Positions 6,172-36,407 of a stretch of 64,000 nucleotides of DNA are shown here, piece by piece. Source of the stretch: Patescibacteria group bacterium (GTDB lineage: Bacteria > Patescibacteriota > Patescibacteriia > UBA1558 > UBA10009); the NCBI GenBank assembly GCA_041662565.1, contig JBAZSE010000001.1, positions 257,084 through 321,083 on the forward strand. The letters are read 5' to 3'. A program made the position numbers and the translations under genes. Positions within the stretch are counted from its first letter, which is position 1; each line of letters begins with the position of its first letter. The notes under the pieces are model-generated. The model saw only the letters and a program-made list of their open reading frames with translations, was not told the origin of the DNA and ran no database searches.

Positions 6172-6173
6172 AT

Positions 6174-6602: not shown

Positions 6603-6674
6603 AGTTCGGCTTGACTATTTTGGCTGTTCTGTTATAATACGCTCAATTAATATTCAGAAATTAAATGTAACCAT

Positions 6675-6983: not shown

Positions 6984-7004
6984 CACGGATTACACAGATT
7001 TTTA

Positions 7005-7049
7005 AAAAAGATTACACGGATAATTATTCAGTGTAATCTTTTTAAATTA
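7005..7049 (+). terminator. rho-independent terminator after rplU, built from GATTACAC/GTGTAATC repeats
   Basis: 11-bp perfect stem aaagattacac/gtgtaatcttt with a 13-nt loop, followed by TTTTT. Two further copies of the 8-mer lie at 6988-6998 and 7050-7060. Confidence 0.5.
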
Positions 7050-7140
7050 GTGTAATCTTTGTTGGGTTGACTTATTTTATTAATTGATGTAGGGTTTAAA
7101 TAATCTGAACTTAACATCACATTTTTTTGAGGAAGGAAAC

Positions 7141-7506
7141 ATGGCTTCTTTAAATCCTAAGTACTGGACAGACATTCCAATGGTCTATACTTTCACTAAA
7201 CCTTTAAGGGGTGCAAGTAAAGACAAAAAATTGTCAACACGCGCACTTTCAATATCCGTGCCAGAAAGCGTAGAGGTTGGGAAGATTCAACTCATCGGAC
7301 CTGATGTCCCATCTGGATTTCATCCGGTACCTTTCCCGAAACAGGCTAAGGCCATGGTGGCCAGAGTTCTATCACCTGATGGCAAGGAAACCAGGGGTTA
7401 TATCACTATGATCGATGATCGTCGTGGTAGTTTTACTCCGGCAACTATGACCGATAGGCAAATCTTCAAATGGAGCAAGGAAGTTATCAGTTGCGGCTGT
7501 TGCTAA
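7141..7506 (+). CDS. hypothetical protein ending in SCGCC, atypical codon usage
   Basis: Strong SD (GAGGAAGGAAAC-ATG) and a downstream terminator. Codon usage differs from neighbouring genes. The C-terminus is ...EVISCGCC. Confidence 0.4.
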   Translation: MASLNPKYWTDIPMVYTFTKPLRGASKDKKLSTRALSISVPESVEVGKIQLIGPDVPSGFHPVPFPKQAKAMVARVLSPDGKETRGYITMIDDRRGSFTPATMTDRQIFKWSKEVISCGCC

Positions 7507-7513
7507 ACGCAAC

Positions 7514-7551
7514 AATCCCGTCGAACCCTGACAGGTTAAACGGGATTTTTT
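7514..7551. terminator. bidirectional hairpin terminator (aatcccgt...acgggatt plus T-run)
   Basis: Inverted repeat with T tract, lying between the convergent ORF 7141-7506 and recR. Confidence 0.5.
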
Positions 7552-7563
7552 TATGGAAGAGTT

Positions 7564-8157
7564 TTAGACTTCCCGACGGTTTTTTAACGCGCTACCCAGT
7601 GTAATTTCATCGGCGTATTCAATATCCGAGCCCGAGGGCAGGCCTTTAGCTAGTCGGGTAATTTTTAAGTTTAAGCTTTGTAAAAGCTTTTGTAGATATA
7701 GAGAAGTGGATTCACCTTCCAAATCGGGGTTTAGGCCCAAAATAATTTCTTTAATTTTGCCACTTTGGGTTCTTGATAAAAGCTGTCTGATATTTAAACT
7801 CTCCGGCCCTATGCCTTCCAATGGGTTTAAAATCCCGCCCAACACATGGTAAACGCCTTGGTATTCACCGGTTCGTTCAATGGCTTGCAAATCATGGCTT
7901 TCGGCTACCACGCAAACAATGTCTTGGTCGCGCTCCGGATTGGAGCATAAGCGGCAGGGATTGGTTTGAGCCAGATCCAGGCAAATAGAACAGGTGATAA
8001 TATCGGCTTTGGCGTGAGTAATGCTGTTGGCAAAAGTTTCCAAATCCGCTTGGGGTTTTTTTAATAAAAAGAAAGCCAGCCGGGAAGCGGTTTTTGGCCC
8101 AATGCCCGGCAGTTTGCCAAGTTGATCAATCAATTTTTGAATAGAAGTAGGTAACAT
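7564..8157 (-). CDS. recR: recombination protein RecR
   Basis: HhH N-terminus GIGPKTASRLAFFLL, C4 zinc finger CSICLD...CRLC, and a Toprim-like region. Confidence 0.9.
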   Translation of the reverse strand: MLPTSIQKLIDQLGKLPGIGPKTASRLAFFLLKKPQADLETFANSITHAKADIITCSICLDLAQTNPCRLCSNPERDQDIVCVVAESHDLQAIERTGEYQGVYHVLGGILNPLEGIGPESLNIRQLLSRTQSGKIKEIILGLNPDLEGESTSLYLQKLLQSLNLKITRLAKGLPSGSDIEYADEITLGSALKNRREV

Positions 8158-8595: not shown

Positions 8596-9969
8596 CTAAT
8601 AATATCCTTCTCGTTTTTCTAAGTTTTTAAATGAGGCCTGCTCCTCTTGGAAAAAAAGCTTTATTTCGCCGGTTGGGCCGTTACGGTGTTTGGCAATATG
8701 GATTTCGGCCAAGCCCCGTTCTTCCAAGCTAATATCATCTATGCGGTATTTGCGGTCGGCGCTTTTTCTATAAATAAACATTACCACATCGGCATCCTGT
8801 TCAATGGAGCCGGATTCCCTTAAGTGAGCCAAGCGGGGTATGGCTGGGCCTGTCTGTTGTTCTACGGCACGGGAAAGCTGGGAAAGGGCAATAACCGGAA
8901 TTTCTAATTCCCTGGCAATGGCTTTTAAGGCCCTGGTAATTTCTGAAACCTCTTGCACGCGGTTATCGGTTAAGGTGCGACCTTCCATTAACTGCAAGTA
9001 GTCAATAACCAACAAGCCCAAACCATGTTCCAGTTTAAGCCGGCGGGCTTTGGTTCTGATTTCCATAATATTGGCGGTAGCACTATCATCAATAAAGATA
9101 GGAGCTTCGGCCAATGAACCCATAGCAAAATTGATTTTTTGGAAATCATCGTTTTCACCGCTATCCGAAAGGTGCCCTGTTCTCATGTTCCATAAGTTAA
9201 CTCCGGCTTCAGCGCAGAGTAAGCGATCAATTAGCTGTTCTTTGCTCATTTCCAAGCTAAAAATACCTACCGGGATTTTTTCTTTGGTGGCCGCTTGCCT
9301 GGCAATATCCAAGGCGAGTGAGGTTTTACCAACAGAAGGACGGGCGGCAATAATAATCAAATCGCTTTTTTGCAAACCGGCCAGTTTGTTATCCAAATCC
9401 ACAAAGCCCGTAGTAATGCCCCGCAGTTTGCCACCTTGGCGGTGCAGCTCATCAATTCTTTCAAAAGCGCTGGCTAAAATGTTTTTAATGGGAACAAAAT
9501 TCTGCTTAAGGTATTTTTGGGAAATGGAAAAAAGTTTTTGTTCGGCTTGGTCCAAAATATGGTCTACTTCATCATCTTCTTTAAAGCCCAATTCGGTAAT
9601 TTCGCTGGCGGATTTAATCAACCGGCGCAAGGTGGCCTTTTTTTGGATAATCTGGGCGTAGCTTAAAACATGGCTGGCTGTAGGCACCATGTTGGTTAGG
9701 TTGGCTAAGTATGATTGCCCGCCGATTGTATCCAGCTGGTTTTTTTCCCGCAAACGGTTGGCCAAAGATAACAAATCAATCGGCTCGCGTTTTTCATATA
9801 AATCGTACATGGATTCCAAAATCAAGCCGTTGGTTTCTCGGTAAAAATCCTCGGGGCGCAAAATATCAGCTACCTTGGTAATGGCTTCTTTATCAATCAA
9901 AAGACAGCCCAACACGGATTGTTCGGCTTCCAAGTTTTGAGGCGGAATTTTAATTGACCCTTCTGCCAT
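8596..9969 (-). CDS. dnaB: replicative DNA helicase DnaB
   Basis: N-terminal NLEAEQSVLG motif, Walker A ARPSVGKTS, and RecA-like C-domain motifs. Confidence 0.95.
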   Translation of the reverse strand: MAEGSIKIPPQNLEAEQSVLGCLLIDKEAITKVADILRPEDFYRETNGLILESMYDLYEKREPIDLLSLANRLREKNQLDTIGGQSYLANLTNMVPTASHVLSYAQIIQKKATLRRLIKSASEITELGFKEDDEVDHILDQAEQKLFSISQKYLKQNFVPIKNILASAFERIDELHRQGGKLRGITTGFVDLDNKLAGLQKSDLIIIAARPSVGKTSLALDIARQAATKEKIPVGIFSLEMSKEQLIDRLLCAEAGVNLWNMRTGHLSDSGENDDFQKINFAMGSLAEAPIFIDDSATANIMEIRTKARRLKLEHGLGLLVIDYLQLMEGRTLTDNRVQEVSEITRALKAIARELEIPVIALSQLSRAVEQQTGPAIPRLAHLRESGSIEQDADVVMFIYRKSADRKYRIDDISLEERGLAEIHIAKHRNGPTGEIKLFFQEEQASFKNLEKREGYY

Positions 9970-12759: not shown

Positions 12760-12829
12760 TGATTGAAACACCCGGGGTGGTAGAGGTTTTAACAAAATCT
12801 CCGCCACCCCAACATTTCAGGAGAGCAAC

Positions 12830-13927: not shown

Positions 13928-14455
13928 ATGCAACAATTCATCAAAGAGGTTTTAAAATATGCCAATAAAGGTAAAATTTTAGACTTGGGAGCCGGGGTAG
14001 GAAAACAGGCCGAGAAATTTTTAGCAACCGGCGCTTCCGTTACTGCGGTTGATAAAAAAAAACCAAAAAAACAAAATCAAAAAATTATCTGGAAAAAATC
14101 CAGAATGGAAGAATTTATTTTTTCTTCGGATTTTACTGATGTTTATGATGTTATTTTCATGCAGAATATAATTCAATTTTTAGATAAAAAATGGACATTA
14201 GCAACTTTAATGCCTGTTTTACAAAGGCACTTATCTAAAAATGGAATAATAGCTATTAGAACTTTTTATAAAAATCCAATTCCTCCCTTTAATAGAGCCC
14301 CTCTCTCACTTTATAAAATCAACACTTTATTATTCTTATTCAAGGGATGGAAAGTTTTATTTGCCAGACAGTTTAAATATGACGGGCCAGGACTTGATGG
14401 AATTAAAAGGCGTTTTTATTTAAGCGATTTAATTGTAAAAAATCAGAAGAAATAA
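13928..14455 (+). CDS. class I SAM-dependent methyltransferase
   Basis: Motif I ILDLGAGVGKQA with a downstream acidic residue. 175 aa. Confidence 0.6.
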   Translation: MQQFIKEVLKYANKGKILDLGAGVGKQAEKFLATGASVTAVDKKKPKKQNQKIIWKKSRMEEFIFSSDFTDVYDVIFMQNIIQFLDKKWTLATLMPVLQRHLSKNGIIAIRTFYKNPIPPFNRAPLSLYKINTLLFLFKGWKVLFARQFKYDGPGLDGIKRRFYLSDLIVKNQKK

Positions 14456-24903: not shown

Positions 24904-26289
24904 ATGGCTACTAAAAAAAATACTTCTTCCTCAAAGCTTAAAGAGCAAAAGGGGAAAAGCAAAAAAAACGCCGGTAAAAAAGTTTTTAAAAAAAAGGCCA
25001 AAACAATAAAGGCCAAAGCCAAGCCGGCTAAAAAGGCGGATAAAAAAAAGCCCGCGATTTTTAAATCCAAAAAAGCCAAACAACGCATCATTAAAGCCAA
25101 GCCATTTAAAAAACATTACCGCCTGCCGGAAGTTAAGCATAAAAATGTTCAACCCCAGCAGGATGAAACCACAGTTAAGGGCTTGGATTTGGCAGTTGTT
25201 AGGGCCTTGGAAGAAAAAGGCCGTTTTAGAAGTTTTATTACCGAAGAAGAAGTGCTGTATGTTTTTACCGAAGCTGAAGAATATCTGGATCAGTTAGAAG
25301 AATTTTTAGATCGTTTAAACGAAGCCGGCATTCAAATGGTTTCGCGCGAAGGCGGATTTTTGGGTGAAACGGAAAATATTCCCGTAACTCCGGCCAGCAA
25401 AAAAAAGACCCACGAACTTTCGGCTAAGGAATTGTTGGAACTGCAAAAATTGGATCTAACCGATATTTCTTCCGATTCCATTCAGATGTACCTGCGGGAA
25501 ATCGGCAAGGTTCATTTGCTAACTACCGAAGAAGAAGTGCAATTGGCCAAGCGCAAAGAAAAAGGGGATATGGAAGCCAAGAAAAGGTTGGTTGAAGCCA
25601 ACTTGCGTTTGGTGGTATCCATTGCCAAAAAGTTTACTGGCCGCAGTTTAAGTTTGTTGGATTTAATCCAAGAGGGCAATATTGGCTTATTTAGGGCAGT
25701 AGAAAAATTTGATTATCGCAAAGGTTATAAGTTTTCCACTTACGCTACTTGGTGGATCAGGCAAGCTATTACTCGCGCGCTGGCCGATCAATCTAGAACA
25801 ATCCGCATTCCGGTGCACATGGTAGAAACCATTAATCGTTTCCAACAGGCCGAAAGAAGGTTGATTCAGGATTTAGGCAGAGAGCCAATGCCCGAAGAAA
25901 TTGCCGCGGAAATGGGCGAGGAGCTTGACAAAGTCCGCCAAATCATTAAAATATCACAAGAAACCGTTTCGCTGGAAACATCGGTAGGCGAAGATGACGA
26001 AGATTCCACTTTAGGTGATTTTATAGAGGATGAAAAAACCATTTCACCGGATAAGGTTGCGGCTTTGCAATTGTTAAAAGATCATGTTCAGCAGATTATT
26101 TCTGACCTTACCCCCAGAGAGCAAAAGATTTTGGAAATGCGTTTTGGTCTTTTAGACGGTGTAGCCCATACTTTGGAAGAAGTGGGTCAGGAATTTGGCG
26201 TAACCCGCGAGCGCATTAGGCAAATTGAAGCCAAAGCCCTGGAAAGAATTCAGCATAACACAGGCATGCGTAAATTAAGAGATTATTAA
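24904..26289 (+). CDS. rpoD: RNA polymerase sigma factor RpoD with Lys/Ala-rich N-terminal extension
   Basis: Regions 1.2 through 4.2 are recognisable ([10 protein letters not shown], the [16 protein letters not shown] block, and [22 protein letters not shown]). The first ~60 aa are a KKAK-repeat tail. Confidence 0.92.
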
Positions 26290-26462
26290 TTTTATAAAAT
26301 TGTTCATTAAATTGTTGATTTAAAAATCGCCGAGCTCGAAAGGGCGAGGCGAAGAGGAAGAAGTTGATTGAAGCCGGAGTGGCTTCGCGATAAGCGGAGG
26401 CACGGAGGCTGAAAGCAACTTTTGACGATCGGGAGTAGCTCAGTGGTAGAGCAGTTGGCTGT

Positions 26463-27010
26463 GAACACGGTCTTTGCTATAATCAGTTTATGGCTAAAGA
26501 CAAAAGAACCTATCGTGATCGCGCTGAATATCTTAAAAAAGCTGTTGATAAAAGGCGTAAGAGTTTACGTTTAATGGCTGTAAGATATAAAGGCGGCAAG
26601 TGTCAACTTTGCGGATACAAAAAGTGCATTCAAGCATTAGATTTTCATCATTTAGATCCTAAAAAGAAAGATTTTGGAATTTCAGAATCCGGAACAACAA
26701 GATCTTGGATGAAAATTAAAACGGAATTGGATAAATGTCTAATGATTTGTGCTAATTGTCATCGTGAAGTTCATCATGGTAAAACGCAGCTTTTTGCCGT
26801 AAGGCAGATTGAAAAATGAGGTGAACTCGGGGAAGCCTGAAATGGTAATCCCGAGCCAAGCCCTGATCTTGCTTAAGCAAGCGTCGGGGAAGGTGTAGAG
26901 ACTATCCTTAACAGGAGTACCTTGTAATGATTACAAGGGAAGCGCCTCATCTCCTAAAAGTTTTAGGAGAATGATATAGTCCACCCTTTAGAGAAATCTA
27001 GAGACAAGTG
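26463..27010 (+). mobile_element. group I self-splicing intron (~548 nt) carrying an HNH homing-endonuclease ORF
   Basis: The 5-prime exon ends in U and the intron ends in G, as group I splicing requires. R-like (GUAGAGACUAUCC) and S-like (GAUAUAGUCC) elements sit at 26895-26906 and 26973-26982. There is also a CGGGGAAGG P-like element. Confidence 0.55.
26490..26819 (+). CDS. HNH homing endonuclease (intron-encoded)
   Basis: CQLCG...LDFHHLDPKKKD...CANCHREVHHG: the classic HNH His-Asn-His/zinc-finger arrangement. Confidence 0.8.
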   Translation: MAKDKRTYRDRAEYLKKAVDKRRKSLRLMAVRYKGGKCQLCGYKKCIQALDFHHLDPKKKDFGISESGTTRSWMKIKTELDKCLMICANCHREVHHGKTQLFAVRQIEK

Positions 27011-27045
27011 TAACCAATTGGTCGTGGGTTCGAATCCCTCCTCCC

Positions 27046-27115
27046 GAGCCATTAAAAAACCACCAAAGAAATTTGATGGTTTTTTATTATTCCAAGATTA
27101 ACGATATTGAGGGAT
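27046..27115 (+). repeat. 70-bp direct repeat R, copy A (contains a terminator-like hairpin aaccaccaaa/tttgatggtt plus T-run)
   Basis: About 94% identical to 30092-30161. It begins at the GAGCCA 3-prime end of the tRNA. Confidence 0.6.
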
Positions 27116-27272
27116 TCGAACGGGCAGAAGCGAGGCAAGCCCTCAGGGCGCAGATGAGCGTCGACAAAAGCGACCAATCGGAAGCTTTTGGCGCTGCCCA
27201 GGACAACGAGACCCGCAAAGCGGGGCGAGGCGGAAATCTTTACCCGCCTTTGGCTGGCCTCCTCCCGAGCCA
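27111..27272 (+). ncRNA. GC-rich structured element ending in a second copy of the tRNA 3-prime end (GGCCTCCTCCCGAGCCA). Candidate small RNA or att-site remnant. It contains a tmRNA-like GGAUUCGAACGGG motif.
   Basis: About 60% GC in a 37% GC genome. It starts with GAGGGATTCGAACGGG, which resembles the conserved tmRNA 5-prime motif, and ends with a 17-nt match to the tRNA acceptor/CCA end followed by a terminator hairpin. Confidence 0.2.
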
Positions 27273-27360
27273 GTAAAAGTGCATCAACGATTGTTGGTGC
27301 TTTTTTAATAAATAAGCTTTTAAAAACCACAAAAATATGATAACATGTATTTAATAAAAA

Positions 27361-28620
27361 ATGCTTGAACAGGCAAATTGTATGAGAAATGTTTTTATAA
27401 AATTTATCCCTTTTTGGATTTTTCTAATTATCTATAAGCTAGGAGGCAGTTTGCACTATTCCTTAATCTCACCTCTTGGGGAAAGGCTTTTACCTTTATG
27501 GATTGTCGGGCTTTTAATGGGCGGCAGCTCAATTATCCAAATGTTGCTTGATGTTCCGGCAGGTCATTTTTTGGATCGCTTTGGTTATCTTAAACTGTTA
27601 AAACTAACGACTTTTATTTTTCTCTTTGCCGGCATTGCCTTTATTTTTAATTTTACCATTGCCACTTATATTATTAGCCTGATAGCCGCCACTTTCGGTT
27701 GGGTGTTGTTTGGTCCCGGAGTTAACGCCTATATTCTTTCTCAGGCACCTAAAAAAAATTCCGGCACTTTCATCTCCTTTAGGGATATTTTCGGCTCAGC
27801 TGGTGTTTTTCTGGCCAGCGCCGTTTTAGGCCTAGTACTTGCCTTAACTCCGACCACCATAGGAACAATAATATTCGCCATAATGCTGGCGGCACTGGCA
27901 GCGCTTTACTTTAGCCCTCCAGATACCATTTCTGTTCATCATGAACAAAAACTCCCCACACAACATCATTATATAAGAAGAAATTATCCTCATAAACTTT
28001 TGCCTATTTTAAAAAAGCTTAATCCGGCTAGTTCCATGCTTTTGCTAACAGGACTTACTTCTTCTATTTTTTACGGCGTCATCTGGTTTGTAGTGCCTAT
28101 AGTAATTGCCAATAGCGCTAACTCGGGCTTGCTCAGTATCGGTCTAGGTATTTTTGATTTTGCCATAGTAGCGCTTGGATTTCTATTAGGTAAGATGGCG
28201 GACAAAGGCAATAAAAGAACGCTGGTCTTTTTTGGATTGTTATTGTTTGCCGTATCGGGAATTCTGATCGGTTTTAATTTTAACTGGCTGTTCCTGGTTT
28301 TGGGATTTTTAGCTACCACTGGCGACGAAATGGCAAGCATTTCCTTATGGTCATGGTTGCATAGTTTAGATAAAGAACACGCTAATGATGGCCTGCTTTC
28401 CGGCGCCATTAACCTTTTTCAAGATTTGGGCTGGGCCATCGGACCGATTATTTCTGGATTTCTTTTTACCTTGATCGGGCCTTCATGGACTATTATGTTT
28501 TCAGCTGTCTTGTTATTCGCCACTTGGATTGTTTACCAATTTTTAATCAAACAGCACCGCCTGTCTTCAACCGGAATTGATATTCCTAAAAAGCCGCATC
28601 GAGCCAGGCATCATGTGTAA
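27361..28620 (+). CDS. MFS transporter
   Basis: 419 aa, 12 predicted TM helices, and an MFS-like loop motif (GHFLDRFGY). Confidence 0.75.
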   Translation: MLEQANCMRNVFIKFIPFWIFLIIYKLGGSLHYSLISPLGERLLPLWIVGLLMGGSSIIQMLLDVPAGHFLDRFGYLKLLKLTTFIFLFAGIAFIFNFTIATYIISLIAATFGWVLFGPGVNAYILSQAPKKNSGTFISFRDIFGSAGVFLASAVLGLVLALTPTTIGTIIFAIMLAALAALYFSPPDTISVHHEQKLPTQHHYIRRNYPHKLLPILKKLNPASSMLLLTGLTSSIFYGVIWFVVPIVIANSANSGLLSIGLGIFDFAIVALGFLLGKMADKGNKRTLVFFGLLLFAVSGILIGFNFNWLFLVLGFLATTGDEMASISLWSWLHSLDKEHANDGLLSGAINLFQDLGWAIGPIISGFLFTLIGPSWTIMFSAVLLFATWIVYQFLIKQHRLSSTGIDIPKKPHRARHHV

Positions 28621-28785
28621 GAAAAAGATATTTCACAATTTGTATAATAAGTTATAACCTCGTCTACTATGGTGAGCCACTAAAAAGGCCTTATTTTATA
28701 GGGCTTTTTTGATTGACCGCAAAAGGGATTAGAACTTTTCATAATTATCAAAATATGATAATCTATCTTTATAAGTATATCCAAT

Positions 28786-29640
28786 ATGAAAAATATTATT
28801 ATAGAAAAACCAATAAATGATTCCCTGCCAGCTCAATTATTATCTTTATATAATGCATTTAAAAATATTAAGGATGGCGAAGATTTAAATTTTGATTTGA
28901 ATAAACTGGTTTGGGTTAGTCCATTGTTGGTTTTACCTATCAGTGCTTACATCGGTTCAACTAACAGTAGTTATAATTTAGATAACTGTTCGGTTAAAGA
29001 ATATCTAAGTATAATTAATTTTCCAAAAGGAATTGATTCGGTATCGTCTTTAGACGAGGCTATGCAAATAAATAAAAGTTATATTCCGATTGGTAAATTA
29101 ATAAAAAATCTAGGCATAGAACGGGAGCGCCTGGAGTCTATGTTTAGTAAAATGATCTATAAAGTAGTTGATACTTCTGCGCAAGGAGCCAGAAGTGCGA
29201 TTTACTATCCTATTGAGGAATTGGTTGGTAATATTTTTGAGCATAGTAAAAAAGAGGAGGGTTTTATCTTTGGGCAGTATTACCCAAAAAAAGAATACCT
29301 GGATATTTGTATCGTTGATAGAGGCCGAGGATTAAAAGGTTCTTATAAAGAAGAGCAAAATATAATAATTACCGATGCAGAAGCTATTAACAGAGTGATG
29401 AGCGGTCATTCCGTTAAATCGGATATAGAGAGAGGTTATGGTGTTAGAACTTCTAAACGTGTAGTGTGCGAAGGTTTGGGAGGAAGTTTTATATTATTAT
29501 CAGGATCAGTCGCTTTAATTTCTTCCCAAAATCAAGACAAAATAGTTGAATTGCCAAATTTTTATTGGCAAGGTGTAATTGTTGCGTATCGAATTCCAAA
29601 ACCAATCAAATCATTTGATATTTCTAAGTATGTGGAATAG
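28786..29640 (+). CDS. GHKL/histidine-kinase-like ATPase domain protein (no HisKA domain)
   Basis: N-box-like ELVGNIFEHS, the G1 motif DRGRGL, and the G2 motif GYGVRTS in the C-terminal half. Confidence 0.5.
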   Translation: MKNIIIEKPINDSLPAQLLSLYNAFKNIKDGEDLNFDLNKLVWVSPLLVLPISAYIGSTNSSYNLDNCSVKEYLSIINFPKGIDSVSSLDEAMQINKSYIPIGKLIKNLGIERERLESMFSKMIYKVVDTSAQGARSAIYYPIEELVGNIFEHSKKEEGFIFGQYYPKKEYLDICIVDRGRGLKGSYKEEQNIIITDAEAINRVMSGHSVKSDIERGYGVRTSKRVVCEGLGGSFILLSGSVALISSQNQDKIVELPNFYWQGVIVAYRIPKPIKSFDISKYVE

Positions 29641-29678
29641 TATTACAAGTTATGTTATACTAAAAAAAGAGGAGAAAT

Positions 29679-30026
29679 ATGGAAAAAATTACTAAAAACA
29701 CTATAAAAATAGCCGATTTAGTCGCCCCTGTAATTAGCTCCAGGGATATAGCTCTTATTCTTAAGAGTAGTATTTTAAAGTCTAATTTCTCTATAGTTGA
29801 GTTGGATTTTTCTAATGTTGAATTTATTTCCAGGTCCGCCGCTCACAGCTTGATTTTAATGAAAGAAGATTTAAAAAGAAGATTTTTTAAAAAGAGAGAT
29901 GTAATTCTTGTTAATACCAATGAAGAGGTTAGTAAAATGTTGCGTATAATTGCGGCTAATAGAGTTTCCCCTAAATCCAAGCCCAATTTTAAAGCTGAAA
30001 AAATAGATATAACAACCTTGGCTTAA
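29679..30026 (+). CDS. STAS-like (DUF4325-like) small protein, partner of the upstream GHKL ATPase
   Basis: 115 aa with ELDFSNVEFISRSAAHSL, resembling anti-sigma-antagonist/STAS-like folds. It is probably translationally coupled to the GHKL ATPase gene, with a 38-bp gap. Confidence 0.4.
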   Translation: MEKITKNTIKIADLVAPVISSRDIALILKSSILKSNFSIVELDFSNVEFISRSAAHSLILMKEDLKRRFFKKRDVILVNTNEEVSKMLRIIAANRVSPKSKPNFKAEKIDITTLA

Positions 30027-30091
30027 ATTTCGGGTATAAAAATATAACCCTTTTTCTCCTTAAATACCGTTATAATATCGTTGACTAAGCG

Positions 30092-30161
30092 GAGCCATTA
30101 AAAAACCACCAAAGAAATTTGATGGTTTTTTATTATTCCGAGATTAATGATATTAAGGGAT
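30092..30161 (+). repeat. 70-bp direct repeat R, copy B, followed (30186-30205) by a third 20-nt tRNA-3-prime-end mimic GAATCCCTCCTCCCGAGCCA
   Basis: Sequence identity with 27046-27115. The 20-mer is identical to tRNA positions 27032-27051. Confidence 0.6.
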
Positions 30162-30251
30162 GAGAAGTTTACACCTCGGAGGGGTGAATCCCTCCTCCCG
30201 AGCCATCAAAAAACATTAGTGAAAACTAGTGTTTTTTGTTATAATGTTTCT

Positions 30252-30428
30252 ATGAATAAAAACAGATTACTATATTTAATTCTCGGCATATTAGCCATAT
30301 TATTCGGAGCATTTCTGTTTGTTTATGGTGAATTTGACGATAGTCCTGGAGGACAAGTGATTGGCCTCGTATTGGCTATTACCGGCATTGTAGTTATTAT
30401 TAAGAGCAGGAAGCAAAATTTTAGCTAA
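30252..30428 (+). CDS. small 2-TM membrane protein
   Basis: MNKNRLLYLILGILAILFGAFLF... The ORF track extends further upstream into the repeat, but the internal ATG start is more plausible. Confidence 0.3.
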   Translation: MNKNRLLYLILGILAILFGAFLFVYGEFDDSPGGQVIGLVLAITGIVVIIKSRKQNFS

Positions 30429-30521
30429 GCTAAATCAGATCTAATTTTGTTTTAGGGGGCAAATCATAAGCCCAGGTTATTTAAAAGTACATTAAAGAAT
30501 TTTAGCGTACTTTTTTGTTTG

Positions 30522-30550
30522 TTTGACACTATATTATAAGGGTAGTATAA
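30522..30550 (+). promoter_or_regulatory. consensus sigma70 promoter TTGACA-17-TATAAT
   Basis: Perfect hexamers preceded by a hairpin terminator (30482-30516), upstream of ORF 30658-30984. Confidence 0.5.
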
Positions 30551-30657
30551 TAAGGATAGTATAACTTTAGGATTATTAAATCTTCTTTTCCATTGGTATG
30601 TGGACAAGCTAATGGATTGGCTGATAAATTATTTTATTATTAATAACAAATATCTAT

Positions 30658-30984
30658 ATGGAAAATAAATTCAAAAAAGGCCTTATCTTGGGCGGATTGC
30701 TCGCTGTTGGCGCGGCCATTGGCTTTGCTTTAACCAAAGAAGGCCAAGAATTAACCGAAGAATTGCAAAAAGACGTTAAAACTTTGGCTAAGCATTTAAA
30801 AAAGAATCTTGGCGATTTGGAAGATGTTACCAAAGAAAACTTTAATGAATTGGTGGATAACTTGGTTGAAGAGTATGCCGCCAAGCATGAACTGGCTGCT
30901 GAAGCCAAAATTTCCTTAATTAAGGCCTTACAAGCCAAATGGCATGAAATGGAAGAAGAATATTTGTCCGAGCAAGATAAATAA
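30658..30984 (+). CDS. YtxH-like/DUF948-like small protein (N-terminal TM, coiled-coil)
   Basis: N-terminal GLILGGLLAVGAAIGFAL followed by a charged helical region. Confidence 0.35.
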   Translation: MENKFKKGLILGGLLAVGAAIGFALTKEGQELTEELQKDVKTLAKHLKKNLGDLEDVTKENFNELVDNLVEEYAAKHELAAEAKISLIKALQAKWHEMEEEYLSEQDK

Positions 30985-31077
30985 AAGACGTAAGATTAAA
31001 AATAGGCAATTATAAAACCCGGATCTTTTAAGATCTGGGTTTTTTAAAGTTACAGAAAAGTGATAGGGATAACAAAT

Positions 31078-31287
31078 TTATTTTAACAACTCGTCTATGG
31101 TGCAACGTAAGGCGTCAGAAATCCTTTTAACGGTTTCTACTCGGGGATCCAGGGTAGCGCCGGATTCAATTTTAGTTATGGTATAAAGAGTTACGCCCGC
31201 TAACTTAGAGAGTTTATCTTGAGACAAACCGGCCTTTAAGCGGTATTTTTTGATATTTCTGGCAATAGAAATAGTGATTTCCGGCAT
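31078..31287 (-). CDS. XRE-family HTH transcriptional regulator
   Basis: 69 aa with IKKYRLKAGLSQDKLSKLAGVTLYTITKIESG, the Cro/C1 HTH pattern. Confidence 0.8.
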   Translation of the reverse strand: MPEITISIARNIKKYRLKAGLSQDKLSKLAGVTLYTITKIESGATLDPRVETVKRISDALRCTIDELLK

Positions 31288-31498
31288 ATGTTTGACAGTT
31301 TATTAATTTAATGGTAAAATTATACTATACTTATTTTATATATATTATTGTACTACCAAAATTATAATAGTAGTAAATCACCCTTTTTACCGATTTTTAA
31401 TTTAAGAAATACTAAACTAATATTAGTTTACATTAATTAAACTAAAAAAACAAGACCTAACTCCCTTATAAGTAAAAAATTAAAATTAGCTCAAGGAG

Positions 31499-32080
31499 GT
31501 GAAAAATATGGTAAATAATAAAGTAGATGAAAATATCAAAGAGTCAAAAGAAGTCGCCTTGCATTACATGAAAACATTAGTCGAGGTTGCCAGGGAATCT
31601 TTTTTAATTCTTGATTCCGAGCTTAGGGTTGTTTCGGCCAACCCGACTTTTTATCAGAGTTTTAAGGTTTCAGAAAAAGAAACCGAAAATATGCTTCTTT
31701 ATAATTTAGGCAATGGGCAATGGGATATTGTTGAACTTAAAAAATTATTGGAAGAAATTCTTCCGGAAAATAATGTAATTAAGGATTATGAAGTTACGCA
31801 TGTTTTTGAAAATATCGGACAAAAAACAATTGTGCTTAATGCCAGGCAAATTGATTCGGTGCAATTGATTATTTTGGCTATGGAAGATGTAACTGCTAAA
31901 AATCAGTTGGAACATAAATTATCCGAGTATACTAAAAATCTGGAAATTAAAATCGCTGAGCGGACCAAGCAGCTTACCATCAAAGTTAAGGAACTGGAAG
32001 ATCTTAATAAAAGCATGGTTGGCAGAGAAATAAAAATGGTTGAACTGCAGAAAACAATTGAAGAGTTGAAGAAAGATTAA
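31499..32080 (+). CDS. PAS-domain protein with C-terminal coiled coil
   Basis: PAS-like fold pattern in residues about 20-130, followed by a heptad-rich tail. Confidence 0.45.
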   Translation: MKNMVNNKVDENIKESKEVALHYMKTLVEVARESFLILDSELRVVSANPTFYQSFKVSEKETENMLLYNLGNGQWDIVELKKLLEEILPENNVIKDYEVTHVFENIGQKTIVLNARQIDSVQLIILAMEDVTAKNQLEHKLSEYTKNLEIKIAERTKQLTIKVKELEDLNKSMVGREIKMVELQKTIEELKKD

Positions 32081-32198
32081 TAACATTCAAAAAAACAGCT
32101 CGGGTTTTACTTTAACAAAAATTGAAGCTGTTTTGTTTATAATTTTTTGGTTTAAATTGAGGTTTTTTGAAATCTAAAAAAGTGGTATAATATGAAAT

Positions 32199-33722
32199 AT
32201 GAATACCATTTCAACAAAAAGAGTTTATTTCGTTGCAGTTGTTTCTTTAGTATTGGGAATCTTATTTGATTATCTGTTTTACGATAAACAAATAGGCATT
32301 TCATTTTTGATTTATGAAGTTTTACTCTTGGCCGGCTTATTTTGCTTTTTGTTTGCTTTTAAAATCCGGCCGGATAAGGCCGTTTTTTTGTTTTTGCCGG
32401 CAATTTTATTTTTTGCCTTAATGGTCGGGATTAGAGATAATATTTTTTTGCTATTTTGGAATGTTGTGATGACGATTGGTTTAATGCTGTTAATGGCGCA
32501 TCAAATAATCGGCCGAAAAATAAATCAGATCCTGTTTTTAGATTATCTTAAAACCGCCGTTATTGTGCCTTTTAGCATGTTAGGTAAATCTATTGGAGCT
32601 TTAGGTAGAATAATTGCCGTGGGTAAAGGCAATAAAGAGAACCAAAAAACTTCGCAAATTGCCAAAGGTATTTTAATTACCTTGCCCATTGCCTTGGCTT
32701 TTTTATTTTTATTAACTTCGGCGGATTTGGTTTTTAAAAAATTGCTTACTAATTTATTCAGTTTTAATTTTAGCATTAATCCCGATGTGGTGGCGCAAAT
32801 TTGGTGGGCCGCGTTTTTTGCTTTTTTGTGGCTGGGTGTTTATATTTACATTTTAGAAAATGCCGGCCAGCCGAAAAATTCCGAGCCGGATTTATTAAAC
32901 CGGATTTATAAGTTTGGCAATATTGAAGCCGGCATTTTATTTACTACCCTAAATGTTTTATTTTTGTCTTTTGTAATTATCCAAATAAAATATTTATTTG
33001 CCGGCCATGGCGCCATAACCCAATTCGGTTACACTTACGCCGAATACGCTCACAAGGGTTTTGGAGAGCTGATCGCGGTTGCTGTAGTAACTTTTGCCCT
33101 TGTTTTTTTGGCCGAAAAGCATATTGAGCGAAGTGAAAATAAACCCAACAGGTTATTTAAAATTTTAACATGTATTTTAATGCTGCTGGTAATAGTGATC
33201 ATGGCTTCGGCTTTTACCAGATTAGGCATTTATGAACAGGCCTATGGTTTTACCTTGTTGCGCCTTTTGGTTCAGGCCTTTATTATCTGGCTAGCCGTTG
33301 TATTTTTGTGGTTAACTTATAAAATTATCAGGAACACAAAAGATCGGCCGTTTATCTTTGGCATATTTTTGTCGGTTGTAACGTTTTTTGTCGTTTTTAA
33401 TCTGTTTAATCCCGATGCTTTTGTGGCTAAAAAAAACATCAATCAATTTGTTAAAACAGGCGCTTTGGATACCAAATATTTGTCAACTTTATCAGCGGAT
33501 GTGGTGCCTGATTTGATGCCATTGTTAGCCATGCCTCAAATCCAGGATAAATACGGTAATCAGCTGGCTATAGAGATTGCGTTCATCTTAAAGAATTTTT
33601 ATGATTTATCAGCCAAACAACCTTGGCAATCTTACAATCTTTCTCGCATAAGGGCTATTGAGCTGATAAATAGCCAGTGGGGTCTGATTTCAACCTTAGC
33701 CCAGAAGAAGTTAATTAATTAA
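32199..33722 (+). CDS. polytopic membrane protein of unknown function
   Basis: 507 aa with at least 10 hydrophobic helices. Confidence 0.4.
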   Translation: MNTISTKRVYFVAVVSLVLGILFDYLFYDKQIGISFLIYEVLLLAGLFCFLFAFKIRPDKAVFLFLPAILFFALMVGIRDNIFLLFWNVVMTIGLMLLMAHQIIGRKINQILFLDYLKTAVIVPFSMLGKSIGALGRIIAVGKGNKENQKTSQIAKGILITLPIALAFLFLLTSADLVFKKLLTNLFSFNFSINPDVVAQIWWAAFFAFLWLGVYIYILENAGQPKNSEPDLLNRIYKFGNIEAGILFTTLNVLFLSFVIIQIKYLFAGHGAITQFGYTYAEYAHKGFGELIAVAVVTFALVFLAEKHIERSENKPNRLFKILTCILMLLVIVIMASAFTRLGIYEQAYGFTLLRLLVQAFIIWLAVVFLWLTYKIIRNTKDRPFIFGIFLSVVTFFVVFNLFNPDAFVAKKNINQFVKTGALDTKYLSTLSADVVPDLMPLLAMPQIQDKYGNQLAIEIAFILKNFYDLSAKQPWQSYNLSRIRAIELINSQWGLISTLAQKKLIN

Positions 33723-33788
33723 TATAAAGTTTTTGTTTCACTTAAATTGTGGTATAATATTAATCTAAACAGTAATCAATAATACTAT

Positions 33789-33854
33789 ATGGCCAAAGGC
33801 AATAATTCGCGCAGAAAAGAAACCAAGAAACCAAAAAAAGGCGCTAAAAAATAA
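33789..33854 (+). CDS. 21-aa Lys-rich peptide MAKGNNSRRKETKKPKKGAKK (not in ORF track)
   Basis: Extended -10 promoter TGTGGTATAAT at 33749-33759, then the ORF, then a hairpin terminator at 33866-33898 (aaccccg...cggggtt plus T-run). Confidence 0.3.
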   Translation: MAKGNNSRRKETKKPKKGAKK

Positions 33855-33953
33855 ATTCTGCTCTAAAACCCCGTTCTTTGCAAAGGGCGGGGTTTTTATT
33901 TTAGACAAATGCACAGATTATGATTTTAGGTCATTTTTTGCTATTATAAGTAA

Positions 33954-34451
33954 ATGCAAACACCTTTTAGAAAACCCGGTGAATTTACTAACATCGTGCC
34001 TGATCCTCATTTAACTCAAGCCAAGTTTAATCAACTTCAGGATAAATTAGCTAAGCTTAAATCGGCCTTGCCAGGAGCAATTAAAGAACTTCAGCGCTTG
34101 GCGGAAATGGGCGATTTTTCCGAAAACGCCGCTTACCAAATGGCCAAAGGCAGGGTTAGATCCTTAAACGATAAGATTTTTGGGATTGAAGAGCATTTAA
34201 AATCCGCTATTATTATCCAGCCAGTTGATCAATCAGGCAGTGTGCAATTGGGCAGTACGGTAACCATTAATTTGGCCGGCCAAGAAAAAACCTATTTGAT
34301 CCTGGGTTCGGCGGAAATTGATTTGTCTCAAAATATTATTTCCCATAATTCACCCTTGGGCTTTGCCTTAATGGGTAAAAAACCCGGAGATGACTTTACT
34401 ATTAAACAAGGTGATAAAGAAACAATTGGCCAAGTAATTAAAGTTGAATAA
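33954..34451 (+). CDS. greA: transcription elongation factor GreA
   Basis: GDFSENAAYQMAKGR motif and a C-terminal FKBP-like domain. Confidence 0.85.
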   Translation: MQTPFRKPGEFTNIVPDPHLTQAKFNQLQDKLAKLKSALPGAIKELQRLAEMGDFSENAAYQMAKGRVRSLNDKIFGIEEHLKSAIIIQPVDQSGSVQLGSTVTINLAGQEKTYLILGSAEIDLSQNIISHNSPLGFALMGKKPGDDFTIKQGDKETIGQVIKVE

Positions 34452-34456
34452 TTTTC

Positions 34457-34708
34457 ATGTATTACCTTTATTTGGTTAAATGCTCGGATGCCACTTTGTA
34501 CGCCGGCATAACCATTGATTTAAAAAGGCGGATTAATGAACATAATGGTTCGCCTCTGGGAGCAAAATATACCAGAGGCCGCAGGCCGGTTAAGCTTGTT
34601 TTTTTTAAAAAGTATAAGAATAAATCTTTAGCTACCAAAGCCGAGTCCAAAATTAAAAAACTATCCAGAACGGAAAAATTAAAATTATGTATAAAAAAAT
34701 CATTATAG
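34457..34708 (+). CDS. GIY-YIG nuclease family protein (YhbQ/UPF0213-like)
   Basis: MYYLYLVKCSDATLYAGIT...RRINEHN, the GIY-YIG core. Confidence 0.8.
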   Translation: MYYLYLVKCSDATLYAGITIDLKRRINEHNGSPLGAKYTRGRRPVKLVFFKKYKNKSLATKAESKIKKLSRTEKLKLCIKKSL

Positions 34709-35664
34709 TAGTTTCTTTAATTTTAGTAATTTTACTTGGCTTGTTTGTTTGGCAAAAGTTTTTTAAAGCTCCTAATTGGCAGGCAGGGTGCACTATGGAA
34801 GCTAAATTATGCCCAGATGGCTCGGCTGTGGGCCGAAGCGGACCTAATTGCGAGTTTAGCGCTTGTCCGGAAGTTGTTAAAGATAACCCTGATAACGGCT
34901 GGAAAACTTTAACTGATTCATTACAGGGCATAAGTTTTAAATATCCCGAAAAATTATCGGCAAATTTTACCAGCACTGTGGCCTGGCCGCCGGTAGTTAA
35001 AGTTGAAATTGGAAAATTTATCTGTAATGCTCAAGATGGCACAGCCAGTTTGCCTTCAAGAATTATTAAAAGATTGGTTGATGATAGGGTTTATTGCGTT
35101 GAAGCTATGAGTGAAGGCGCGGCCGGCAGTACATATACTTCTTACGCTTATACCACCGCGCAGTTTGGTAAATTAATAACGTTGTCTTTTACTTTGCGTT
35201 ATCCGCAATGTTTAAATTATGATGATCCGCAAAAAACATCTTGCCAAAATGAAAGAGAGAGTTTTGATTTGGACGGCGTAGTTGATAGGATGTTTCAGAG
35301 CATTGTTTTTATTGGCAATGTTGCTGCTAAAGCCGATTTAGTTAAAGTTGATTTTCCATTAGTTAATCAAGTTGTTAGCAGTCCGTTAACAGTTAGCGGT
35401 CAAGCCAGGGGAGTATGGTTTTTTGAAGCCAGTTTTCCGGTTCAGCTAATAGATGTTGACGGACAAATTATAGCTTCGGGAATTGCCCAGGCCAAAGGCG
35501 ATTGGATGACTCAGGAATTTGTGCCATTTGAAGCCAAATTATCTTTTACTCCACCTCCTCAAAGCACCAAAGGCCTGTTAATTCTTAAAAAAGATAATCC
35601 CTCGGGTTTGCCGGAGCATGATGATTTTTTGGAAATGCCGGTTGTTTTTAACAATAGTAATTAA
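34687..35664 (+). CDS. secreted protein with C-terminal Gmad2 Ig-like domain
   Basis: N-terminal TM/signal. The C-terminal ~110 aa (SGQARGVWFFEASFPVQLIDVDGQII...GLLILKKDNPSGLPE) matches the Gmad2/GerM-associated pattern. Confidence 0.55.
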   Translation: MYKKIIIVVSLILVILLGLFVWQKFFKAPNWQAGCTMEAKLCPDGSAVGRSGPNCEFSACPEVVKDNPDNGWKTLTDSLQGISFKYPEKLSANFTSTVAWPPVVKVEIGKFICNAQDGTASLPSRIIKRLVDDRVYCVEAMSEGAAGSTYTSYAYTTAQFGKLITLSFTLRYPQCLNYDDPQKTSCQNERESFDLDGVVDRMFQSIVFIGNVAAKADLVKVDFPLVNQVVSSPLTVSGQARGVWFFEASFPVQLIDVDGQIIASGIAQAKGDWMTQEFVPFEAKLSFTPPPQSTKGLLILKKDNPSGLPEHDDFLEMPVVFNNSN

Positions 35665-35670
35665 TATTTT

Positions 35671-36336
35671 ATGATTTTGTGGAATTTTTTTAAATCAATT
35701 TATTTTCAGCACAAGGATTTTTGGACCAAAGAAAGATGCGCTTTATTGATCGGCGGAATTTTATTTTTTGTTGCGGCTTTGGTGTTGCAGGGTGTTGCCG
35801 GTCGTTACTTGGCATCCGTGGTGGGTACGCCGGTTAATGATTTAATTTTAAAATATTTGCCTCTTTTGGATATTGATTTGTTGATTGTCCAAGGCGCCTT
35901 GGTATTAACTTTTATTTTAATTTGGCTGTTTTTAACCAAGCCCAAATATTTGTTGTTTGCCCTTAAAGCCCTGGCCTTGTTTGTGATGATCCGCTCATTT
36001 TTTATTACTTTAACCCATTTGGGCATTAGCCCACATCAACTGGTTTTTGACGCTAACAGTTTTGGTTTTGGTTTGTATAATTTTTTGTATAACAGTAAAA
36101 GCGATTTTTTCTTTTCCGGGCACACCGGCGTGCCATTTTTAATGGGGTTGATTTTTTGGCCGGAAAAATGGTGGCGGATTTTTTTCTTTACGGTTTCTTT
36201 TTTATTCGGTTGCGGCGTTTTAATCGCTCGGGTTCATTATTCCATAGATGTTTTTGCCGCGCCTTTTATTACTTACGCCATTTTTGCCATGGCTAAAAAA
36301 CTGTTTCCCAAAGATTATTTTTTGCTGCGATCATAG
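35671..36336 (+). CDS. PAP2-superfamily-like membrane protein
   Basis: SGHTG and RVHYSID motifs (PSGH / SR-x5-H-x3-D-like) within a 5-6 TM protein. Confidence 0.4.
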   Translation: MILWNFFKSIYFQHKDFWTKERCALLIGGILFFVAALVLQGVAGRYLASVVGTPVNDLILKYLPLLDIDLLIVQGALVLTFILIWLFLTKPKYLLFALKALALFVMIRSFFITLTHLGISPHQLVFDANSFGFGLYNFLYNSKSDFFFSGHTGVPFLMGLIFWPEKWWRIFFFTVSFLFGCGVLIARVHYSIDVFAAPFITYAIFAMAKKLFPKDYFLLRS

Positions 36337-36407
36337 GATTAATTTTAATTTAAACGGGGCTGGGATACGCCCTGTTTTAAGTTGTGATTTTCTGTTAAAA
36401 TTACTTT

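Follow-up and report, generated by a model that had tools for sequence, protein, structure and literature searches.

Organisation of the tRNA-Asn locus

We analysed a 64-kb stretch of DNA (the window; 39% GC) from an 809-kb Patescibacteria contig, and in particular the region directly downstream of its tRNA-Asn(GUU) gene, which is split by a group I intron. Reading away from this gene, the order of the locus is tRNA, R1-X1, hp2-MFS, hp4-GHKL-STAS, R2-X2 and hp3, where R1 and R2 are the copies of a repeat R, X1 and X2 are copies of an element X that ends like the tRNA, hp2, hp3 and hp4 are hairpins, and the remaining names stand for a major facilitator superfamily (MFS) transporter gene and for genes encoding a GHKL-type ATPase and a STAS protein. 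The tRNA end is present in five copies, each reading GAGCCA and then an A-rich, terminator-like hairpin (at 27046, 27267, 28674, 30092 and 30200), and these five junctions delimit the tRNA, X1, the MFS module, the GHKL-STAS module, X2 and the flank (Table 1).

A preliminary description of the same DNA had read the locus as one 3-kb cassette bracketed by two copies of a 20-mer from the tRNA 3' end. This 20-mer, GAATCCCTCCTCCCGAGCCA, does occur exactly twice, at 27032-27051 (copy A) and 30186-30205 (copy D), with a chance expectation of 0 occurrences even when up to 3 mismatches are allowed. The middle copy (copy B), given earlier as a 17-mer at 27256-27272, is also present, and it matches exactly over 15 nt only (27258-27272, CCTCCTCCCGAGCCA). 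R, a hairpin with a T-run followed by an AT-rich spacer and GAGGGATTCGAA or AAGGGATGAGAA, was found to extend over 75 nt at 93% identity. The fifth junction, between the MFS and GHKL genes, had been missed, and the protein-coding modules have only the 6-nt repeat GAGCCA at their ends, not the 20-mer. Instead of a single bracketed cassette, the locus consists of four or more modules (X1, MFS, GHKL-STAS and X2), arrayed one after another, with GAGCCA and a hairpin at their ends. The sequence GAGCCANYAAAA is found five times in the window, against 0.23 expected, and all five lie in one 3.2-kb stretch (27046-30211). A GGGAT(T/G)(C/A)GAA motif stands 20-30 nt past three of the five hairpins (at 27111, 28725 and about 30157). 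The homology between R1 and R2 stops within this T-loop-like motif, directly after GGGAT, and it is here that homology between the window and its closest relative begins.

An assembly artefact, in which a chimeric join at a repeated terminator would have produced the repeats, had been raised as a concern, and short-read assemblies do break at R. However, the exact repeat inside R (48 nt) is shorter than the assembly k of 141, so that the 809-kb contig resolves R. In the Logan assembly of SRR6484324, an independent sample, contigs stop at exactly k-1 bases inside the exact part of R, on both of the sides expected, and a different metagenome-assembled genome (MAG), L135, has the same order of X, hp4, GHKL, STAS and GAGCCA. 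We therefore consider the probability of an artefact negligible.

Table 1 Features of the tRNA-Asn locus and of the array behind it, in window coordinates.
Feature	Position	Strand	Description
rpoD	24904-26289		upstream of tRNA-Asn and the cassette
U	26328-26428	+	structured GC-rich leader, 101 nt, 57% GC, directly 5' of tRNA-Asn exon 1; context, outside the repeats
tRNA-Asn(GUU)	26429-27051	+	encoded CCA; exon 1 26429-26462, group I intron 26463-27010, exon 2 27011-27051
HNH ORF inside intron	26490-26819	+	HNH Pfam match
Group I intron match	26723-27003	+	Rfam RF00028, 71.6 bits
R1	27046-27120	+	GAGCCA, bidirectional terminator-like hairpin 27053-27086, AT-rich spacer, first X1 bases GAGGGATTCGAA
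X1	27109-27272	+	164 nt, 63% GC; 5' arm GAGGGATTCGAAC, 3' arm CCTCCTCCCGAGCCA (copy B)
MFS module	27273-28679	+	hp2 27281-27300 and T-run, promoter-like AAAATATGATAAC, MFS gene, 3' untranslated region (UTR) ending GGTGAGCCA
MFS transporter gene	27361/27382-28620	+	MFS_1 Pfam match, E 8.5e-30
Copy M of GAGCCA	28674-28679	+	end of the MFS module 3' UTR
GHKL-STAS module	28680-30097	+	hp4 about 28682-28710, GGGATTAGAAC 28725-28735, promoter-like AAAATATGATAAT, 3' UTR ending GCGGAGCCA
GHKL-type ATPase gene	28786-29640	+	weak HATPase_c match, E 0.0044, 17.9 bits, below cut-off
STAS gene	29679-30026	+	STAS match, E 5.6e-6, 26.5 bits, above cut-off
Copy C of GAGCCA	30092-30097	+	end of the GHKL-STAS module 3' UTR
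R2	30092-30166	+	GAGCCA, hairpin 30099-30132, spacer, AAGGGATGAGAA
X2, minimal X	30146-30205	+	5' arm AAGGGATGAGAAG, 23 nt, T-arm-like hairpin GGAGGG-GTGAAT-CCCTCC into ...TCCCGAGCCA (copy D)
hp3	30206-30240	+	terminator-like hairpin closing the array, AAAAAACATTAGTGAAAACTAGTGTTTTTT; chromosomal flank follows
Small membrane-protein ORF	30252-30428		in the chromosomal flank

Relatives differ at the tRNA 3' end

Related loci, designated here by L and a number, were collected through a scan of metagenome contigs with the 20-mer, through RpoD homologues and through exact-protein look-ups. The succession of rpoD and tRNA-Asn is also found in relatives. The relatives differ exactly at the GAGCCA junctions, and one of them has a recombinase-bearing element at the same junction. 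The tRNA 3' end, proposed earlier as a site-specific integration point, is supported as a point of both integration and variation in this clade.

The closest MAG is L135 (Komeilibacteria; GHKL protein 89% identical), in which the order is dnaG, rpoD, a DUF3800 gene, tRNA-Asn with an intron, a different hairpin, X (5867-6006, 89% identical to X1), hp4, GGGATTCGAAC, GHKL and STAS. The sequence between tRNA and X cannot be aligned with that of the window. Relative to L135, the 1407 bp comprising hp2 and the MFS gene (27273-28679) are an indel with GAGCCA at each edge, the end of X in L135 being joined directly to hp4. After STAS, L135 continues with ...AAGCGGAGCCA, another hairpin and then unrelated genes; R2, X2 and copy D are absent. 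In L130, whose RpoD C-terminus is identical to that of the window at 155 of 156 residues, a GIY-YIG gene, an intron-less tRNA-Asn, a hairpin and the 5' two-thirds of X are followed by genes for a helix-turn-helix (HTH) protein and a membrane protein, which occupy the place of the window cassette.

Two further loci, L098 and L119, are identical through dnaG, rpoD and tRNA-Asn and diverge right after GAGCCA. L119 encodes at this point (6018-7634, minus strand) a 552-aa large serine recombinase with Resolvase and Recombinase domains, the reading frame of which runs into the tRNA-Asn 3' end, and this region looks like an integrative element at the junction that holds the array in the window. A 391-aa protein follows the recombinase. 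In L146-149 (RpoD 84% identical), the tRNA is followed by an R-like terminator, the first 38 nt of X, and genes for HTH_17 and RhuM proteins, with additional RadC and type I restriction-modification genes in the tRNA-Asn island of L146 and L147. The island of L148 and L149 ends in ...GACGAGCCA, after which comes the sequence that directly follows the tRNA in L098. L148/L149 and L098 are an occupied and empty pair with the 6-nt repeat GAGCCA, in which the terminator and X lie within the inserted unit.

Other loci have nothing of the array at the tRNA end: in L140-143 and L111 (RpoD 92% identical), tRNA-Asn is followed by a terminator only, without X or cassette, and the window is collinear with L140 except for 27052-36400, which has no counterpart there. 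R-like terminators follow tRNA-Asn in L148 and L111 as well. The absence of the segment elsewhere, which the preliminary description had named as a check, is seen for the MFS segment and X2 in L135 and for the whole array in these loci. The unit formed by tRNA-Asn and its leader U (window region compared, 26290-27090) is inverted relative to rpoD in L140 (9377-9742), L142, L143 and L111 (1592-1830), and the inverted tRNA-Asn converges with rpoD on a shared bidirectional terminator in L140-143 and L111. Because of this inversion in relatives with 92% RpoD identity, the tRNA can be said to sit at a rearrangement breakpoint. In L152, rpoD and the tRNA are separated by a MORC-like ATPase gene and an IS3 element. 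A 1.5-kb segment of the same locus is flanked by two copies of a sequence of about 60 nt, in inverted orientation and both with GAGCCA (12760-12825, minus strand, and 14345-14415, plus strand), one of them immediately beside the tRNA-Asn 3' end; this segment could be invertible or mobile.

An element that copies the end of the adjacent tRNA

The 15-20-nt copies of the tRNA end and R had been read as a likely scar of one or two integration events at this locus. They belong instead to X, a recurrent element of about 55-165 nt, GC-rich, which starts with a T-arm-like GGGATTCGAA and ends with the 3' end of the neighbouring tRNA. We found X after tRNA-Gln, tRNA-Asn and tRNA-Ser in more than 10 loci of the Candidate Phyla Radiation (CPR), among them L100, L103, L117/127, L118, L128 and L129 (tRNA-Gln), L135 (tRNA-Asn) and L018 (Saccharibacteria, tRNA-Ser). 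The layout of these loci is a tRNA, a terminator-like hairpin, the motif RAGGGATTYGAA 42-60 nt past CCA, a body, the 3' arm and another hairpin; the body is GC-rich, 80-130 nt long and ends with GAGAWYATC and the last 17-19 nt of the same tRNA. The 3' arm is always the adjacent tRNA's own end, also in L018, where an X-like element occupies the 160 nt downstream of tRNA-Ser(GGA) (7892-7982, minus strand) with the same GGATTCGAAC start and GAGTGAGATT junction and with the tRNA-Ser end (TCCCTCCCTCTCCGCCA) as its 3' arm.

Because GGATTCGAATCC is a perfect palindrome, the 5' motif of X equals the 5' strand of a T stem together with the T loop. We infer that X reads as tRNA positions of about 49-76 with the T loop split by a GC-rich body of 25-130 nt. 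The bodies are of three types, with AAGCGAC and the end motifs common to all; as the middle parts cannot be aligned across types, structures were predicted for each type separately, with no single consensus. The 5' arm of X2 matches the GGGATGAGAAC (GGGATGAGAA) type seen in L118 and L128. X is truncated or degenerate in L130, L148, L106 and L098, and therefore dispensable.

Besides X1 and X2, no further copy of X is present in the window. In L103 (minus strand), 140-260 nt after tRNA-Gln, a 61-nt unit consisting of the X end and a tRNA-like arm is duplicated head to tail. L118 and L128 have a second terminator and a truncated X start after X, mirroring R2-X2 of the window, and in L115 (5194-5299) a tRNA-like pseudogene is repeated together with a spacer. 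Neither X nor U matches any family in Rfam 15, in a search in which only the group I intron and tRNAs pass the thresholds; this includes the known small RNAs that we had considered for X (SRP, 6S, RNase P, Y RNA and omega/guide RNAs). It is very improbable that the open reading frames (ORFs) called mechanically across X1 (on the plus strand 27073-27276 and 27188-27340, on the minus strand 27052-27330) are genes; owing to a 1-nt indel, L135 does not preserve their frames. Simple scans for promoters and terminators detected hp2 only.

Proposed origin of the array and its alternatives

Since the relatives differ exactly at the tRNA end, site-specific integration is supported, in the form of an accreted array rather than of a single bracketed cassette. 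Our preferred reading, to which we assign a probability of roughly 0.55, is that the locus is an integration hotspot anchored on tRNA-Asn, which has accreted integrase-less modules via site-specific recombination at tRNA-like 3' ends, with the crossover probably in or next to GAGCCA. The recombinase would act in trans, and could be a large serine recombinase like that of L119 or a tyrosine integrase with a 6-7-bp overlap. An incoming module would carry its own terminator at the left end and ...GAGCCA at the right end. X would be the tRNA-proximal end module of islands, the 3' arm and terminator of which re-create a tRNA-like end and hence a secondary attachment site, allowing further modules to insert without touching the tRNA; the MFS module appears to have inserted in this way at the end of X1. 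R1 and R2, each a terminator with the start of X, would then be the left ends of two successive units, and homologous recombination across R could be another route by which the 3 kb between them are gained or lost.

Several observations weigh against this reading. No integrase, transposase or excisionase domain was detected in any large ORF of the 64-kb window (no match to Phage_integrase, Resolvase or rve), recombinase genes being present in relatives only; this agrees with the earlier remark that no integrase remains and with an element that behaves as non-autonomous. Rearrangement, including the inversion of the tRNA relative to rpoD, complicates the calling of empty sites in relatives, and the exact-protein look-ups (GHKL, RpoD and a downstream 108-aa protein) returned only the same arrangement, from one strain, with no circle or empty site. 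A 6-nt repeat could also come from microhomology-mediated deletion. A serine recombinase would not generate copies of 15-20 nt, and in the attR of a classical tyrosine integrase the T arm would be uninterrupted, with no body inserted in it; both chemistries misfit X, the origin of which is therefore unexplained by standard att chemistry. When the tRNA-end 17-mer and three X-body motifs were compared with 2.9 million IMG/VR contigs, the one match was a jumbo-phage tRNA-Gln, so that no donor attP is known and a phage attP reading of X is unsupported. Finally, X of L118 and L128, in a syntenic context, is 92% identical over 64 nt with the differences in loops, against about 70% (estimated by eye) for Pth, which could reflect long vertical retention under selection, as of a gene rather than a scar.

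Because att chemistry leaves X unexplained, three rival explanations were kept. In one of them, a form of which was proposed in the preliminary description, X1 and X2 are small-RNA genes in which pairing between the two ends would imitate the acceptor/T-arm minihelix of the adjacent tRNA, including a 3' CCA; R would be a terminator/promoter region, the copies a local duplication, the cassette ordinary flexible DNA and its GAGCCA ends incidental. The anatomy partly bears this out, as there are two copies of X, each preceded by R, and a terminator-like hairpin follows every X. X1 has 63% GC in a genome of 39% GC, and the motifs RAGGGATTYGAA at the 5' end, AAGCGAC, and GAGAWYATC right before the tRNA-like 3' arm are conserved, as is X between L118 and L128. 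Homologous hairpins change sequence yet keep their pairing across the window, L135 and L130 and within types T1 and T2, with double changes at 8 of the 37 predicted T2 pairs, and in L129 a C-to-U change in the 3' arm lies opposite an A in the 5' arm. Nevertheless, support at the RNA level is weak: the fold of X1 has a z-score of -1.0, with 30 of 200 dinucleotide shuffles equally stable, both strands fold about equally well, z is near 0 for T1b elements, and a simple scan finds no recognisable promoter. The decay of X in four loci also speaks against a required RNA, and the GAGCCA ends of the protein modules, three in number, and the occupied and empty pair of L148 and L098 would be left unexplained. 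Moreover, the 3' arm of X tracks the adjacent tRNA, and a recombinational link is therefore needed beyond any RNA function. We regard this explanation as rather unlikely. Alternatively, X may be a recombination site that acts as a folded single strand, like the attC site of integrons or the attP(+) hairpin of CTX phage, in which the imperfect 5' arm and the tRNA-like 3' arm would rebuild a duplex T-arm/acceptor and a host recombinase would capture cassettes into an integron-like array on the tRNA. A long, bulged terminal helix is predicted between the arms, around a centre of 55-165 nt that varies in sequence while structure is kept, and the folding of both strands, which counts against an RNA gene, is as expected of such a site. 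All modules point in the same direction, with GAGCCA as a short core common to their boundaries, and the want of a local integrase recalls attC clusters lacking the integron integrase. However, there is no IntI-like gene in the window or in the locus of any relative, the protein modules are equipped with promoters and terminators of their own and lack an X-like hairpin at the 3' end, a locus has at most two copies of X, and the register of arm pairing differs between X types, so that we consider this mechanism very unlikely.

The third rival, to which we give a slim chance at best, holds that X is a miniature inverted-repeat transposable element (MITE) or another non-autonomous transposable element, one terminal repeat of which resembles a tRNA 3' end, so that it lands beside tRNA genes and its termini pass for tRNA-end copies. 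The size of 55-165 bp, imperfect terminal inverted repeats, a rod-like fold on both strands, decay in some genomes and tandem partial copies in L103, L118 and L128 would suit such an element. On the other hand, neither the 64-kb window nor the loci examined contain dispersed copies, no target-site duplication or transposase partner was seen, the orientation and position of X relative to the tRNA are constant, and the 3' arm is the sequence of the adjacent tRNA even where this is tRNA-Ser rather than tRNA-Gln or tRNA-Asn. X1 was also considered as a degenerate, minimal or two-piece transfer-messenger RNA (tmRNA, ssrA), in which case the repeats would be those of islands integrated in ssrA. Its 5' end, GGGAUUCGAACGGG, is tmRNA-like, resembling GGAUUCGACGGG of tmRNA, and a short frame, RKR(R)SKAT(T)I-stop, is retained in L103, L118 and L128, where a 6-nt indel leaves it in phase and the stop codon changes from TGA to TAA. 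However, neither in the window nor in 140 loci does ARAGORN call a tmRNA, no tmRNA family of Rfam matches even at E <= 10, and X1 lacks a 5' acceptor strand, an intact T arm and G3:U70. The window and L135 have no conserved frame in common, type T2 has none either, and the GGATTCGAATCC motif is simply a palindromic T arm. With this the tmRNA reading is effectively refuted.

X might also be what drives a capture system in CPR bacteria that is independent of integrases or depends on a host recombinase. Folded single-stranded DNA or RNA would rebuild a copy of the neighbouring tRNA T-arm/acceptor as a portable attachment site or guide, stacking GAGCCA-ended cassettes behind tRNA-Gln, tRNA-Asn or tRNA-Ser, and would so function much like an integron whose anchor is a tRNA gene. 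We think this unlikely.

Comparison with known integration systems

The asn-tRNA islands, such as the Yersinia High-Pathogenicity Island and ICEKp, use a P4-like tyrosine integrase and are flanked by a direct repeat of about 17 bp of the tRNA-Asn 3' end. The window resembles them in that the 3' end of tRNA-Asn is targeted and the tRNA regenerated, repeats of 15-20 nt of this end flank foreign DNA, and occupancy varies. In contrast, it has no integrase, its protein modules are bounded by 6 nt only, the long repeats lie on a conserved element of 55-165 nt with the tRNA-like part split in the T loop, and it is found in a CPR bacterium whose genome measures at least 0.8 Mb. Of the features of tRNA-targeted islands in general, we found an intact tRNA-Asn boundary, distal repeats of its 3' end (20, 15, 6 and 6 nt) and variable presence with breakpoints at the att repeats; there is no integrase within the element, and only relatives carry a large serine recombinase (L119) or HTH_17 (L146-149). 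Classical attR-type partial tRNA copies were encountered in the 20-mer scan at tRNA-Asn loci of unrelated marine bacteria (L113, 4928-5423, and L086). Their contiguous identity of about 45 nt runs from the anticodon stem to CCA, in contrast to the split, body-containing X.

Cis-mobilisable elements (CIMEs) and the tandem accretion of integrative elements are known from streptococci, and genomic islands form tandem arrays at tRNA and tmRNA genes. The window shares with these systems att-flanked units without recombination genes of their own, placed in tandem at one tRNA site, with end modules that are shared or swapped; it has att sites at both ends and no recombination module, and a candidate for the type of helper that would mobilise it in trans is encoded in L119. 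The modules of the window are, however, tiny (0.06-1.4 kb), and each end falls at an intrinsic-terminator-like hairpin. Tandem arrays and attP mosaicism of integrative elements are mentioned in PMC9580842. The similarity to large-serine-recombinase elements lies in the Resolvase and Recombinase gene that abuts the same tRNA-Asn end in L119 and in the short GAGCCA end repeats, which fit a crossover with a 2-bp core; it does not extend to the window, where there is no such gene, or to the arms of X, which remain unaccounted for because these elements produce no target duplication of 15-20 nt.

X is similar to attC sites, to clusters of attC sites lacking integron integrases (CALINs) and to the attP(+) site that CTX phage offers to XerCD in being, by predicted folds only, an imperfect palindrome of 55-165 nt with bulged arms and a variable centre, in which structure prevails over sequence; as in CALINs, the cassettes have one orientation and no local integrase. 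Unlike integron and CTX sites, the locus has no IntI or dif-like site, its cassettes have their own promoters and terminators, no locus has more than two copies of X, and the array is anchored on a tRNA. X alone is hairpin-like; at the 3' ends of the MFS and GHKL modules there is no such hairpin. Compared with MITEs, X has imperfect inverted arms, is not dispersed in the 64 kb or the related loci and is always adjacent to a tRNA. Insertions in T loops are known from the group I intron in the tmRNA T loop of Clostridium botulinum and from archaeal 59/60 introns. X likewise consists of the T-stem 5' strand with TTCGAA, a body, and (A)AT with the T-stem 3' strand, the acceptor 3' strand and CCA. 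It differs from these insertions in lacking tRNA positions 1-48 and in having a body too small for a group I intron and without an Rfam match.

Cargo of the array

The gene content reported earlier (MFS, GHKL and STAS) is confirmed by Pfam matches, of which that to HATPase_c is weak. The MFS and GHKL genes have a promoter-like AAAATATGATAAY in common. The closest homologues of the MFS protein (77-78% identity) are encoded in Yanofskybacteria, in an ordinary stable operon with no tRNA or GAGCCA nearby. As these best homologues belong to another CPR class and to a stable operon, horizontal acquisition of the MFS gene is consistent with the sequence comparison. We rejected the possibility that the gene travels elsewhere as a mobile cassette with the same ends, since homology to the L159 and Yanofskybacteria loci is limited to the coding region. 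Upstream of the 78% identical MFS gene of L159 (1250-1420) there is a GGTTCGAATC fragment, a GC-rich stretch with AAGGAGCGTCGATAAC (compare GAGCGTCGACAAAAGCGAC in X) and an R-like terminator, and these surroundings may be another X-like context; a gene for a large serine recombinase lies 0.5 kb downstream.

The GHKL-STAS pair has more than 300 homologues, at 55-60% identity, across Patescibacteria, one of which is called an anti-sigma regulatory factor in one source. The GHKL-like protein has 284 aa, a length that is almost invariant among homologues, and the STAS protein 115 aa; neither has a sequence relative in the PDB. A kinase/antagonist pair of the anti-sigma type (RsbW-RsbV, SpoIIAB-SpoIIAA) would combine the two domains, the match being above the cut-off for STAS and below it for HATPase_c. 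The pair is near a sigma-70 gene in the window and in L135. A defence system was rejected as the identity of the cargo, PADLOC having given only a weak match to the ATPase region of DrmA. In L136-139, a pair that is 76% identical is found in an unrelated context without GAGCCA ends, and having neither GAGCCA nor the hairpin it rules out that these are an intrinsic part of the GHKL-STAS operon.

The tRNA-Asn gene, its intron and the leader U

As previously described, the tRNA gene contains an intron, which matches the Rfam group I family. The joined exons give a canonical tRNA-Asn(GTT) fold, identical in sequence to the intron-less gene of L111, and ARAGORN overlooks the gene because the intron splits it. 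The intron lies between anticodon positions 35 and 36 and is polymorphic among close relatives: the window copy encodes an HNH protein, that of L135 (5560-5772) is shorter and lacks HNH, and tRNA-Asn has no intron in L130, L111, L098, L119 and L146-149. Free-standing GIY-YIG genes adjoin the intron-less tRNA in L130 and L146-149.

Directly 5' of exon 1, the leader U has a predicted fold with a z-score of -7.4 (none of 200 shuffles equally stable), and this structure is specific to the plus strand. U is 97% conserved directly 5' of tRNA-Asn in L111 (1592-1680) and L140-143 (in L140 at about 9520-9610, minus strand), with the apical hairpin swapped for a different hairpin, and it is lacking in L135. 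U, for which no Rfam family was matched, might represent a structured RNA, not described before, that RNase P releases.

Implications for gene acquisition in CPR bacteria

To our knowledge, little is known about how CPR bacteria (Patescibacteria), with their tiny genomes, acquire genes. The locus described here, together with at least seven related ones, is a concrete site of gene flux, the tRNA-Asn 3' end next to dnaG-rpoD, at which content is interchanged between close relatives, including transporters, the widely conserved GHKL-STAS pair, genes for restriction-modification and other functions of the defence type, and an element with a serine recombinase. What is new here is the punctuation of modules by GAGCCA and a terminator, the recurrent element X that tracks the adjacent tRNA, and the CPR setting. 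X is unannotated, copies the end of whichever tRNA precedes it and recurs across distant CPR lineages. Should X turn out to work as an attachment module or as an RNA, the stacking of integrase-less cassettes at tRNA genes would be explained, and islands of this kind could be sought in metagenomes by the sequence of X. If X is instead decaying att debris, the locus would still document, in an uncultured phylum and at good resolution, tandem accretion at a tRNA hotspot.

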